Below are positions 20,776-26,438 of a stretch of DNA of 64,000 nucleotides, piece after piece. The first letter of the stretch is position 1; every line of letters starts with the position of its first letter. The notes beneath the pieces were generated by a model that was not told the origin of the DNA, made no database searches, and saw only the letters and a program-made list of their open reading frames with translations. The position numbers and the translations under genes were made by a program. The stretch covers positions 448,001 to 512,000 of the forward strand of contig CBDATS010000005.1 in the NCBI GenBank assembly GCA_965200245.1, in the 5' to 3' direction. The DNA comes from a bacterium. GTDB lineage: Bacteria > UBA8248.

Positions 20776-22074
20776 GTGACAGCGCATCTTGAACGCTTCT
20801 TCGGACTGGCGCAGTGCGGCACCAACGTACGAACGGAAATTACGGCGGGCGTGACGACATTCCTGACGATGGCCTACATCGCCTTCGTAAACCCGCAGAT
20901 ACTTTCAAACGCCGGCATGCTGTTCGACGCTGTGTTCGTCGCCACCTGCATCGCTGCGTCACTCAGTACGCTGCTGATGGGACTTTATGCCAACTACCCG
21001 ATTGCGCTGGCGCCAGGCATGGGCCTCAACGCGTTCTTCGCCTTCAGCGTCGTGCTCGGCCTCGGCCACAAATGAGAAGTCGCGCTAGGCGCGGTCTTCG
21101 TTTCCGGGTTGTTGTTCCTGGTGATCAGCATATTGCCGGTGCGACGCTGGATCGTAGAGGCGATACCACAGGGTCTGAAACTGGCCATCGCGGCCGGTAT
21201 CGGCCTGTTCCTGGGCATCATCGCGCTCAAGAACGCCGGCATCATCCAAGGCAGCAAGGCAACACTGGTCACTCTTGGCCACCTGACGACGCCCGGACCA
21301 TTGCTGTGCTTGGTCGGCTTCTGTTTGATCGTGGCGCTCGCCGCGCGCAAGGTGCCGGGCGCCGCGCTCATCGGGATGCTGGCCGTCTCCGTTACAGGCT
21401 TGATTTTCGGTGTCTCGAAATGGAAGGGCATCGCCTCGCTGCCCCCTGATCCCACGCCGACGCTTTTCGCGCTGGACATCGCCGGCGCGCTGCAAGTGAA
21501 CATGCTTGCAGTCATTCTTGCATTCCTGCTCGTCGACTTGTTCGACACCACGGGCACGCTGATTGGCGTGGCACACCAGGCACGACTCCTGGACGACAAA
21601 GGGCGGCTTCCGCACATGCAGCGCGCGCTGATCGCCGATTCGGCGGGAACGGTCGGAGGCGCCCTGCTCGGCACCTCTCCCGTTACGAGCTATATCGAGA
21701 GCGCAGCCGGGGCGGGCGCGGGCGGACGCACGGGTCTGAGCGCAGTCGTCGTGGCCGTATTGTTCCTCACCTGCCTGTTCTTCTCGCCGCTCGCGGGTTC
21801 TATACCACCATACGCGACTGCAGCGGCCATTCTCTACGTGGCCTGTCTGATGGCGCGCCCACTCATGGACCTGGACTGGAACGACGTGACAGAATCGGCC
21901 GCTGCAGTCCTGACCGTCATCGCCATTCCGATGACGTTTTCCATCGCCGACGGCATCGGCATCGGGGTCATCACCTACGTACTGATCAAGATGATGGCGG
22001 GACGCATGGGCGAATGCTCGCCAACGCTGATCGGGGTCGCGCTTCTGTTTGCCATCAAGTTCGCGTGGCTGTGA
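20776..22074 (+). pseudogene. NCS2/AzgA purine permease interrupted by an in-frame TGA at 21073-21075
   Basis: TTFLTMAYI and APGMGLNAFF, then GLGHK*EVALGAVF continuing in frame to DTTGT and YIESAAG. The stop sits at a normally Trp position. Confidence 0.8.
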
Positions 22075-23348: not shown

Positions 23349-23621
23349 ATGTCCATTCCGCTCACGTGAGATTTCAGAGAAACGATTCAGGCACGGGTCC
23401 AACAAGATACTCCCTTCCGGGAGAAACTTCTGGAAGAAGGTGTCGAATTCCTGCGCTCGGGAGAGATGGTAGTCGGCAAGACGGTACAGAGCGATATCGT
23501 CAACGCGACTCCCGACCTTGATACTCCAAGCTCCCTCACCGGAAAATCCCTGAAATGCCCCATGCGTATACGCGGACATACATATCCTGGAGCTATTTGG
23601 CCACACCACATACGGAAATAG
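23349..23621 (+). pseudogene. Degenerate addiction-module antidote / HTH regulator
   Basis: Manual translation MSIPLT*DFRETIQARVQQDTPFREKLLEEGVEFLRSGE...GK....DIVNAT resembles the MxLTRDFKETIxARxxxD antitoxin family; TGA at an Arg position. Confidence 0.65.
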
Positions 23622-24179
23622 TATTTGCCACTCGCCGTCTGCCCATTTGAGAGACTATTTCTCTTGAAATCAGATACATCAACGGCAATTTACATGTAAA
23701 GAGCCGCTCACGGATCTGAAAGCGACCGAAACGGCGCTCGATAGTCCGCATTGTTCATGACGATAGATTTTGTTGGGGTATTGGCGCGTTTTTCGTCCGG
23801 GTTTACGGATTTCATGAGGTTCAGTTTGTTTTGGTTTTTGGGGTTGGTTTGCGGCTCTTGCCGCGTTGGTCAGGATCCTTGAGCGGCGATGCGTTGGAAC
23901 ACGCCCGCGAGCATCGGCTGGTTTGCCGCTCCTCCTTCGTAAATGCGGACCGGCTGCAGACACCGCCCGCCCGCATGGGCGTTGAAAAAGGACAACCGTT
24001 GACCACCACAGGTGCGGTCGATTGTGTCGTCAATGTCCAGCACAGAATTTGGGGGAACGCAGAAAAATTTCTTGCGTTTCCACCGGAATGTCCCGTATCC
24101 TGTTCATGATGCAAAAGAAAAACGAAAGCAGCGTGGGTGTCAACCCATACCCATTTCTCTCGGGAAAGGAGACAGGAAC

Positions 24180-24449
24180 ATGAAGACAGCGGCCGAGATG
24201 CGGCAGCAGCTGAGTGAGAAGGCAGGCACGGACGAGGCGTTCCGGCAGAAACTGCTCGACGACCCGCGCGGCACGATCGAAAGCGAGTTCGATGTCGCCC
24301 TGCCGGCCGGTTTTTCGGTTTCGGTGCTCGAGGACAGTGCGGATCATGCGCATCTGGTGATCCCGCCCTCGTCGCTGATCCCCGACAGCGACCTCGAGAG
24401 CGTCAGCGGCGGGATAGACCGGTGGGGTAGCCGCGACTACGGCCCCTGA
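24180..24449 (+). CDS. NHLP-leader (proteusin-type) RiPP precursor; core IDRWGSRDYGP
   Basis: KAGTDEAFRQKLLDDPRGTIE...VLEDSADHAHLVIP..DSDLESVSGG leader ending in double Gly; RBS AAGGAGA upstream. Confidence 0.9.
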   Translation: MKTAAEMRQQLSEKAGTDEAFRQKLLDDPRGTIESEFDVALPAGFSVSVLEDSADHAHLVIPPSSLIPDSDLESVSGGIDRWGSRDYGP

Positions 24450-24479
24450 CCCTGGCGGGGTCGATAAGTGGCACATATA

Positions 24480-25342
24480 TCAGGCGGCCTCGTTTACTGG
24501 CGGAACAGGACTTTCGGGGTCCATGCCGCTCACTGCGATACCATCGAACCGGCGGCACAGGTTGGCCAGACGTATGTCATCGGTCTGGTCCATTTTATTG
24601 AAAACCCGAATGACAGGTGTGCCGACAGGTCCGATCCCGTCCAGGATTTTTTCTACCGAATTCAGGTTGTCCTCACAATGGGGGGATGAGGCATCCACAA
24701 CATGAAGCAGGAGATCCGCTTCGCTCAACTCTTCCAATGTCGCGCGGAACGCCCCTGTCAATTCCCGGGGGAGGTTGTGAATGAAACCGACGGTATCCGT
24801 GATGATGACTTCCTGTTCGCGGGGAAGCCTGAGTCTGCGGCTCGATGTGTCCAGGGTGGCGAAAAGCCGGTCCCCGGCCATGACGTCGCTGTCTGTCAGG
24901 GCGTTGAGCAGTGTGGATTTTCCGGCGTTGGTATAGCCTACCAGGGAAAGAATCGGTACCTGGCGCCACGTGATGGAGCATGGGAACTGCGAGGATGAGG
25001 GAATCGCGGCAATCCTGAACAGGCATTCCGTGTCCATCAGGGAAGCGGTGCAGATGATGACGGGCCCGTTTCATGGCGAGAGCCGGAAACATCTCCAGTG
25101 TGGACGGGTTCTGCTGTCGCTGCAATCTGCGTGTAACGGACCCAGCTTATGTGCCCGGGTTTACGTGGCGGAAGTGTGTGGGCCTGTGAGGGGCGGGGAT
25201 GGGTGCCATGATGCTGTCCCGGGAAAGCAGGGTCCGGAATACCGGAATCCGGTTTACCTCCTGCATGTCCTGAACTGACAAGGACTGGTAACCGAAAACC
25301 CTGCCGGCGAGCCAGGGACATCGATAATCTGATCTTTCCCAA
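24480..25342 (-). pseudogene. hflX: GTPase HflX, degraded (only the G domain is recognisable)
   Basis: LVGYTNAGKSTL, LFATLD, DTVGFI, AFRATLEE, NKMD; the N-terminal region is scrambled. Confidence 0.8.
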
Positions 25343-25376: not shown

Positions 25377-25586
25377 TCATCCGGCCCTCAGTGAGCGCAG
25401 CGGCAGGGCTTCGGTCTCCGGAGTGGATGGATCGGGACGTCGCGACGCATGGTCGATGTCAAAGCCAGTCACGCCACCACCAGGGCCTGCGTTTACTCCG
25501 TCTGAAACTTCGCGCGTCTCCGCGCCCGACTCGGACCTGAACTCGATATAAAGGCTGTCGGTACAAGGAGAGTAGTGCAGCTTCAT
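25377..25586 (-). CDS. DUF2283 domain protein, possibly degenerate
   Basis: MKLHY...TDSLYIEF...ETREVSDGV...GFDIDHAS. Confidence 0.75.
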   Translation of the reverse strand: MKLHYSPCTDSLYIEFRSESGAETREVSDGVNAGPGGGVTGFDIDHASRRPDPSTPETEALPLRSLRAG

Positions 25587-25871: not shown

Positions 25872-26104
25872 ATGGTTATCAAATCGCAAATTTCCAAGTG
25901 GGACAACAGCTTGGCGCTAAGGATTCCACGACCCGTCGCCGATCAGTGAGGGTCAAGGAAGGGACAGAAATCGAGATCATGCCCCGTGGCGACCAAGTGG
26001 TCTTGAGAAAGAATATCCTTACCCTTGAAACCATGATAGAATAAATCTGCCCCGAGGAAATCCACGCATTGGTGGACTATGGAGCAGAGGCTGGCGCGGA
26101 ATAA
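25872..26104 (+). pseudogene. mazE: MazE/AbrB-type antitoxin with frameshift and stops
   Basis: MVIKSQISKWDNSLALRIP...DQ, shifted VKEGTEIEI...TLETMIE*ICPEEIH. Confidence 0.75.
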
Positions 26105-26438
26105 TGGTAGCATATGTGCCGGATAGAGGGGACATCGCTTGGTTGGCCTTTACTCCTCGGGCCAGGCATAAGCAGCCGGGATACCGCCCTGCCTTAGTTC
26201 TCAGCCCGAAAATTTATAACGAGAAAACTGGCTTGGCGTTTTCTGCCCCGTCACGTCCCGGGTCAAGGGCTATCCCTTCGAAGTTGCCTAGCCCACCGCT
26301 GGCCCTGTTTCGAGAGTGGTGTTGTCCGACCAATTAAATAATCTGGACTGGCGGGCCAGGCGTGCATGCTTTGAATGCCGGACGACTGCCCGTGTGGTGG
26401 GAGAGGTCATCAAAAATTTGAGAGTCTTTCTGGATTAA
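26104..26438 (+). pseudogene. mazF: MazF/PemK endoribonuclease toxin, frameshifted
   Basis: YVPDRGDIAWL.F.P...RPALVLSP..YN, shift to CPVTSRVKGYPFEV*...VLSDQL..LDWRAR. Confidence 0.85.

Follow-up and report, generated by a model that had tools for sequence, protein, structure and literature searches.

An NHLP-leader precursor gene from a sponge-symbiont genome belongs to a library of about thirty precursors with hypervariable aromatic cores, alongside a family with a predicted prenyltransferase fold

We analysed a 64,000-nucleotide stretch of bacterial DNA (hereafter the window) that corresponds to positions 448001-512000 of contig C5 in its source genome, G000; C2, C4, C8 and C15 are other contigs of the same genome. 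The element of interest is a small open reading frame (ORF) at window positions 24180-24449 on the forward strand, which encodes 89 amino acids followed by a stop codon and is a real NHLP-leader peptide-precursor gene. It belongs to a set of about thirty NHLP precursors, a lineage-specific library with conserved leaders and hypervariable, aromatic cores in a Nitrospinota-type sponge symbiont. The second component of the system is an unnamed protein family of ~330-420 residues, labelled UF here, which shows strict genomic coupling to NHLP precursors and whose structural model has the ten-stranded alpha-beta-beta-alpha (ABBA) barrel fold of aromatic prenyltransferases. The reading that we favour, tentatively, is that G000 makes a combinatorial library of short aromatic peptides that would be prenylated in trans by UF and then exported.

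The window ORF is intact, and its translation divides into a leader and the 11-residue core IDRWGSRDYGP (Table 1). An earlier note on this DNA had described an intact 89-residue gene with a strong ribosome-binding site, an NHLP leader, a GG cleavage site and this same core, and our analysis bears out each of these points. The NCBIfam model of the NHLP leader, TIGR03793, scores 62.3 bits (cut-off 50.9) with an E-value of 2.8e-17, aligning residues 4-78 of the precursor with profile positions 2-77 of 77. In Pfam, NHase_alpha alone is matched, below threshold (22 bits versus 27.2), and the Nif11 model reaches only 15.5 bits. The core contains an XYG motif in the form DYG, and it is not of the LCCCW type with a C-terminal Trp that characterises the srp proteusins. 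By blastn, the leader is 94-97% identical at the nucleotide level to six loci of the same leader subfamily. An identical core occurs at C2:304865-305086 and a one-residue variant at C4:1971-2192. The likeness to other members of the subfamily stops at 24412/24413, as seen both with blastn and in read contigs: metagenome and metatranscriptome contigs break exactly at this point and then run into other cores.

Whereas the earlier note regarded the gene as an orphan, a profile search of G000 (3.68 Mb in 15 contigs, completeness 95.8%) found TIGR03793 matches at 40 places, 34 of them over the cut-off, and the window gene is one of these 34. Because C2 and C15 overlap by only 4.8 kb at contig ends, which explains two places, the other places are true dispersed short repeats rather than redundant contigs. 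In an alignment of 21 cassettes, columns are conserved at ~0.8 all the way from the upstream block through the leader, and this value drops to ~0.2 at the core. Tails read from genome coordinates at 33 places gave 24 distinct cores of 1-20 residues (mean 9.0), in which Trp accounts for 9.3% and Tyr for 13.0% of residues, compared to 0% and 1% in the leaders. Every one of the 24 distinct cores holds Trp or Tyr; Tyr occurs within the first two positions in 14 of them, and Cys in only one. A junction of the G-G/A/S type is recognised at 30 of the 33 family places (at two of them via a looser A/Q-G pattern), and most family leaders contain an LTEEQL-type (L-x4-L) stretch, of which the window's subfamily has a variant.

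The size of this family sets G000 apart from its relatives. NHLP matches occur in 15 of 22 other genomes in the genus, with one to seven each versus 35 in G000, and the variable-core subfamilies were found only in G000 among the genomes searched. The public sequencing runs that hold the window stretch are labelled sponge metagenome. At C4:2269-2466 and C2:305163-305360 there are leader-to-leader chimeras, in which a 5'-truncated second leader directly follows a copy of the window gene, and contigs of three runs contain a joint that leads from 24456 back to 24393 with eight extra letters. These chimeras and the joint in the reads suggest that the cassettes recombine frequently with each other.

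We surveyed the neighbours of the precursors by clustering 368 crude ORFs within 6 kb of precursor loci. UF was the only recurrent cluster besides the precursors themselves, generic ABC ATPases (7 ORFs) and small clusters of two or three ORFs that were not annotated as groups; at five of the loci, 42 flanking ORFs were annotated with Pfam, and these were ordinary housekeeping genes. UF is present at eight places in G000, one of which is a contig-end duplicate, leaving seven loci with five intact genes. The intact genes lie at C8:325431-326495, C2:5723-6739, C2:7365-8408, C15:99066-100115 and C5:367033-368010. Within the genus, UF is found in the same 15 of 22 genomes as NHLP and in none of the other seven, and it is absent from all 28 genomes sampled elsewhere in the phylum. 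All 27 UF loci examined in the relatives have an NHLP precursor in their 1.5-kb flank. Their UF-paired precursors are of three kinds: one with an 18-residue, Trp/Phe-containing core (15 loci), one that ends in IYY and lies beside a second exporter, and one of 83 amino acids that ends in LCCCW (LSCCW in one case; 11 loci). The LCCCW precursor is SrpE of the sponge srp proteusin clusters, which have been published (PMC10286304, PMC10858898, 10.1101/2023.06.09.544420).

One relative cluster was annotated (genome G002, locus L036), and there the LCCCW precursor is accompanied by a fused YcaO cyclodehydratase, a GlnE-like nucleotidyltransferase and ABC subunits. In G000, the exporter has a degenerate srpE-like copy next to it, the adjoining UF gene has a stop codon, and YcaO is missing over the cut-off. 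A related-locus search with the genus UF alignment recovered 13 loci in records titled Nitrospinota or Nitrospinaceae metagenome-assembled genomes, and the search with a single UF protein recovered no relative. The stretch L036:2830-6607 of the G002 cluster also encodes a 433-amino-acid protein with an NHLP-like N-terminus (42.6 bits, below cut-off), and the GlnE-like nucleotidyltransferase stretch is carried there by a 798-amino-acid protein that lies between the ABC subunit and YcaO. At C8:217754-218710 (+) in G000, a 318-residue ORF between the broken UF gene and the degenerate srpE-like copy shows only a faint likeness to a squalene-cyclase repeat (21 bits, below cut-off).

UF has 674 relatives at E <= 1e-3 (against 1.84 billion representatives), and its 84 homologues in a named collection are all unnamed or called 'hypothetical protein', with no Pfam domain. 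The AlphaFold2 model of UF from an alignment of 106 members (predicted local distance difference test 93.1, predicted template modelling score 0.92) is built of five alpha-alpha-beta-beta repeats. Foldseek returned 77 PDB matches to this model at E <= 1e-3, with probability 1.00 and template modelling scores of 0.41-0.59, and the matches listed are all aromatic prenyltransferases (EpzP, DMATS1, AmbP1, PagF, CymD, NphB, CloQ and others). The same holds for the best 50 in VIA-align (Z 13.8-16.1, root-mean-square deviation 4.0-4.9), where 259-303 residues align across model residues 1-340. Two divergent UF members also have Trp_DMAT, PTase_Orf2 and DUF5838 clusters among their language-model neighbours (0.88-0.90), which we treat as leads only. 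Eleven positions are nearly invariant in UF (E49, D60, E113, D115, R185, R191, K277, H306, K308, K330 and Y332); in the model, most of them fall on predicted strands or in the loop that joins these, and the seven G000 paralogues all largely preserve them. These residues are only candidates for the basic/Tyr diphosphate-binding cluster and the catalytic acid of an ABBA prenyltransferase.

The earlier note had seen no maturase or transporter in the window, and in agreement with this, genome-wide matches for the exporter, cytochrome P450, UF, YcaO and SPASM all fall outside it (not every window ORF was annotated). With no maturase in cis, any processing must therefore come from elsewhere in the genome. 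G000 has one NHLP-type export set, at C8:219599-225625, which consists of a C39-peptidase ABC, a second ABC subunit and HlyD. A C39 peptidase-ABC had been named in the earlier note as a gene to look for; the one found here (C8:222519-224708) contains the C39 domain and scores 902 bits with TIGR03796 against a cut-off of 853.3, and the second ABC subunit, at 683.9 bits with TIGR03797, is just below its cut-off of 709.4. The idea of trans-encoded maturation thus survives in outline, with an exporter at a distance, but its candidates change: the evidence points to UF and to one P450 rather than to the enzymes that had been proposed, namely a radical-SAM splicease or cyclophane former, YcaO, a halogenase or LanM. 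SPASM (TIGR04085) has no match over the cut-off in G000, only two weak ones with stop codons; YcaO has none over the cut-off either, the single match scoring 18.5 bits versus 25.7; Trp halogenase has no match; and neither does LanC (PF05147), for which the control genomes were silent too. These results leave the proposed enzymes unsupported. Radical-SAM genes number 18 in G000, and the only one found beside a precursor, at a distance of 1 kb, is MoaA (368 bits), with MoeA adjoining.

PlpX-type radical-SAM spliceases excise tyramine at an XYG motif. The earlier note read the window core, with its DYG and single Trp, as a substrate for such an enzyme, for a flavin halogenase or for a cyclophane-forming radical-SAM enzyme, and a precedent for the halogenase exists in the srp brominase, which acts on a C-terminal Trp in other organisms (PMC10286304). 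We regard this reading as most improbable. In addition to the lack of SPASM over the cut-off and of any Trp-halogenase match in G000, with MoaA as the only radical-SAM neighbour found, the window Trp is not C-terminal; and because all cores hold Trp or Tyr and YG occurs in only 4 of the 24, the W and DYG of the window core are traits of the family and not a splicease signature.

Biarylitide- and cittilin-type peptides carry biaryl or aryl-ether cross-links made by P450 enzymes. A cytochrome P450 in G000 (C2:3836-5128) matches PF00067 at 71 bits and, weakly, the RiPP (peptide made by ribosomes and post-translationally modified) P450 ApyO at 46 bits against a cut-off of 525. Its locus, L015, has the P450 between a truncated precursor (L015:3349-3639, reverse strand) and a second precursor with the core NLYY (L015:5280-5555, forward strand), after which two UF genes follow. 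The product of this locus is possibly a biaryl-type mini-peptide. In G002, the orthologous precursor ends in IYY and adjoins the second NHLP exporter, with no P450 among the annotated ORFs of 13 kb. While the position of the enzyme between two precursors and the abundance of adjacent aromatic residues in the cores are what one would expect if the P450 matured the library by cross-linking Tyr, Trp and His, it is the only such locus, it recurs at no other precursor, and it is missing from the annotated part of the orthologous G002 cluster. We therefore consider it very unlikely that this P450 acts on the library as a whole.

The library members share more than their leaders. The upstream block has a sharp left edge, as blastn matches of ~25 other loci all start at window 24056-24065, and 22 of the 28 distinct sequences that lie upstream of paralogous loci contain it. 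The 5' untranslated region of the window copy has no Rfam match above noise and folds no better than shuffled sequences (z -0.02); with RNAalifold, the paralogues gave only a weak hairpin (-2.2) that covers the ribosome-binding site, and no structure is claimed. In several paralogues, pairing is possible between the Shine-Dalgarno sequence and a short pyrimidine stretch (within 24140-24179 of the window), and one paralogue locus appears to keep this pairing with different letters. In most loci of subfamily A, a GC-rich inverted repeat lies ~40-110 nucleotides 5' of the shared block (for example, upstream of C4:1372369). This hairpin is present at the C2:304865 copy, the window copy has unrelated sequence in its place, and it may be a terminator, an insulator or part of a mobile unit.

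Metatranscriptome contigs of two libraries span 24063-25100. One RNA contig equals 24384-24456 with zero differences, and another covers 24427-25100, extending into window-specific downstream sequence. In the same libraries, depth is zero or near zero at 23500-24039, where DNA runs do have cover. These RNA contigs are a weak hint that the precursor is expressed.

In the mechanism that we propose, each precursor would be transcribed from its own conserved upstream block. The structured NHLP leader would then dock the precursor on one of the five intact, trans-encoded UF proteins, UF would put an isoprenyl group on the indole of a core Trp or the phenol of a core Tyr, and the single NHLP exporter would cut after GG and secrete a small lipidated peptide. 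We infer here that UF is a catalytic prenyltransferase and that it acts on the window peptide, and the same applies to the residue, the donor and the role of the product. Both the prenylation and the guidance by a leader have precedents, in MppC with its Nif11-type leader and in PalQ with its NHLP-type precursor PalX (discussed below).

A number of observations weigh against this mechanism. A shared fold, here that of a model, is no proof of function, and the identity of UF to known prenyltransferases is only 9-16%. In Pfam and NCBIfam, the UF query has no match and none of 106 members matches at E <= 1 (query and members alike lie outside PF11468, PF11991 and PF19156 by sequence), and the 106-member profile finds no PDB sequence at E <= 10. 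Two of the seven UF loci, including the one beside the exporter, contain an in-frame TAG. No UF gene adjoins any member of the window's leader subfamily, so that the window peptide is tied to UF by family only. The precursor family is degenerate in part (the junction is missing at three places, a 45-residue tail is found at one, and two are fusions with a 5'-truncated leader), and the G000 assembly has a contamination of 8.1%. With respect to transcription, the earlier note's promoter, TTGCGT-N18-TATCCT, holds up in part: both hexamers are present, and their conservation across paralogous upstream sequences supports them, but they agree with the sigma-70 consensus at a weak 7 of 12 positions (manual count), and a consensus scan of 23700-24900 reported no promoter. 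One RNA contig of a paralogue extends 5' of the proposed promoter, with a loose end at 24063. The expression evidence as a whole is weak because it consists of contigs, which give neither starts nor strand and could derive from carried-over DNA. Finally, the window copy itself is flanked by a transposase fragment on one side and by gene fragments on the other.

Alternatively, leader cleavage and export may take place without any prenylation of the peptides, or with some other chemistry, and UF would be a prenyltransferase-fold protein that does something else, for instance as a leader-binding scaffold, a chaperone or another alkylating or cyclising enzyme of srp-type pathways. UF is a sequence-orphan family, an exporter alone would suffice for double-glycine peptides, and UF also accompanies YcaO, the GlnE-like nucleotidyltransferase and an NHLP-domain protein in the srp cluster at L036 of G002. 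Sponge proteusin clusters of this kind are described as including 'several genes of unknown function' (PMC11832590). However, the uniform presence of Trp or Tyr in the cores calls for a step directed at aromatic residues, the charged residues conserved in UF lie on predicted strands or the loop and are kept in paralogues, and the best structural matches are all active aromatic prenyltransferases. We thus judge a non-prenylating role for UF to be unlikely, though it deserves to be taken seriously, and retain trans-prenylation by UF as the preferred reading.

It is also conceivable that the window copy is a non-functional relic, a young duplicate placed in a junk region by recombination or insertion-sequence activity that would owe its intactness to its age alone. 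Its flanks, with transposase and gene fragments on either side, are the reason to suspect a duplicate that arose recently and is dead. The earlier note had described the neighbours as decayed genes, which fits the transposase fragment, the truncated GTPase duplicate, the toxin-antitoxin fragments of the PemK/MazF type and the DUF2283 ORF that we find there (Table 1). Consistent with a relic, the window copy lacks the upstream hairpin region common to many paralogues, the same core is encoded at C2:304865, and several family members are visibly broken. Yet the ORF, the ribosome-binding site and the conserved upstream block are all intact, and an RNA-library contig joins the core to window-specific downstream sequence, which makes us consider a relic quite unlikely. 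Farther upstream (20776-22074, forward strand), two adjacent ORFs of 99 and 321 amino acids match successive stretches of PF00860 and together make up a split xanthine/uracil-type permease, probably through a frameshift in the gene or an error in the assembly.

Table 1. Coordinates of the precursor cassette and of the flanking features, in window numbering.
Feature	Position	Strand	Basis or details
DDE transposase fragment, directly 5' of the cassette	23873-24043	-	PF13701, 29.8 bits (cut-off 34.7), profile positions 142-179 of 435
Upstream block common to paralogous loci (promoter-like sequence and ~80 nucleotides of putative 5' untranslated region)	24063-24179	+	blastn, alignment
Proposed -35 TTGCGT (24072-24077), 18-nucleotide spacer, -10 TATCCT (24096-24101)	24072-24101	+	Conserved in paralogues
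Shine-Dalgarno sequence AAGGAG, 8 nucleotides 5' of the ATG	24166-24171	+	Sequence; kept in the paralogue alignment
NHLP leader, residues 1-78, GG at residues 77-78	24180-24413	+	TIGR03793
Core IDRWGSRDYGP, 11 residues (24414-24446), and stop codon	24414-24449	+	Translation
Truncated GTPase fragment, 185 amino acids, directly 3'	24483-25037	-	MMR_HSR1, 75.8 bits; 99.6% identical to C2:312126-312610
DUF2283 ORF	25380-25586	-	Annotation
Truncated PemK/MazF fragment	26104-26334		Profile positions 2-44 of 109

Taken by itself, the window gene is a further example of an already known type of NHLP precursor. What is new is the library of about thirty NHLP genes with Trp/Tyr-rich hypervariable cores, specific to G000 versus 22 genomes of the same genus, and an unnamed family, with a prenyltransferase fold according to its model, that is tied to NHLP precursors including those of srp clusters. 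The functional unit would be the precursor family together with the five intact UF genes and one exporter, and the window gene should not be studied alone. We speculate further, and with considerable doubt, that UF proteins are unrecognised leader-guided ABBA peptide prenyltransferases and a core, as yet unassigned srp component, and that in G000 they have become uncoupled from azoline formation and bromination and are instead coupled to a self-propagating cassette of promoter, leader and variable tip, which would give rise to a prochlorosin-like set of roughly two dozen Trp/Tyr mini-peptides in prenylated form. Should UF prove to be a prenyltransferase, srp pathways may end in lipidated products, which would change the targets for mass spectrometry. 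The library would then be a second natural example, after the prochlorosins, of combinatorial RiPP diversification, in this case through the alkylation of aromatic residues in very short, linear cores, and UF could provide leader-guided, sequence-tolerant enzymes for Trp/Tyr lipidation in peptide engineering.

Among known systems, the srp (sponge-derived RiPP proteusin) clusters, with the precursor SrpE, the YcaO enzyme SrpC and the brominase SrpI, share habitat and leader with the G000 library. In sponge microbiomes, NHLP (srp) clusters are exceptionally abundant, with a role that is called unclear in a review (PMC12426817), and srp precursor genes are very highly expressed according to a preprint (10.1101/2023.06.09.544420), which also identifies the LTEEQL-type stretch as the YcaO recognition sequence. 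Similar to srp, the library has NHLP leaders of the same length class, most of them with an LTEEQL-type stretch, and its hosts live in sponges by the labels of the runs; in relatives, the LCCCW precursor adjoins UF, and YcaO and an NHLP exporter are present in the one annotated cluster. In contrast to srp, the window core has neither Cys nor a C-terminal Trp, G000 has no YcaO over the cut-off and no halogenase match, and the cores of G000 are hypervariable whereas those of srp are conserved. We found no mention of a UF-like gene in the available portions of the srp literature, and no report that connects an ABBA prenyltransferase with srp or NHLP proteusins, besides the Nif11 case MppC; both statements exclude the founding srp paper (PMC8780398) and all supplements. 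In a 2026 review of prenylation, the words leader, sponge and lanthipeptide are all absent.

Three prenylating systems each resemble one part of the proposed mechanism. PalX of Paenibacillus alvei is an NHLP-type precursor with an aromatic core of 8 amino acids, the Trp of which is prenylated by PalQ, with enhancement by the leader (PMC10853753). The precursor type and the short aromatic core are thus alike, but PalQ belongs to the all-helical isoprene-synthase superfamily (ComQ-like) and not to the ABBA enzymes, and it serves a single precursor with a histidine kinase alongside. The cyanobactin F-type enzyme PagF has the same fold as the UF model, with PDB entries 6pgn and 5tu6 among the Foldseek matches, and prenylates Tyr or Trp of peptides; cyanobactin F-type prenyltransferases, however, are leader-independent and act on excised or cyclised cores (PMC12715784), and G000 has no cyanobactin proteases. 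The ABBA prenyltransferase MppC, by contrast, alkylates a Trp of the core and depends strictly on a Nif11-type leader (PMC12715784). In the MppC/MppE system, which makes a lanthipeptide, the substrate is first macrocyclised by LanM, and no cyclase is evident in G000; in addition, UF is not detectably related in sequence to the Pfam prenyltransferase families. Nevertheless, a soluble ABBA prenyltransferase that needs a long structured leader is the very mechanism proposed for UF.

With respect to genome organisation, the closest parallel is with the prochlorosins, in which many precursors with Nif11 leaders are served by one promiscuous enzyme, ProcM (compare the abstract of PMC10783134). The G000 leaders are NHLP and not Nif11, the cores are aromatic, and LanC has no match, with the controls silent. 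Because the cores are aromatic and nearly all lack Cys, lanthionine chemistry is not to be expected in the G000 library. What the two systems have in common is their architecture: dozens of dispersed precursor genes with conserved leaders and hypervariable cores, served by few enzymes.

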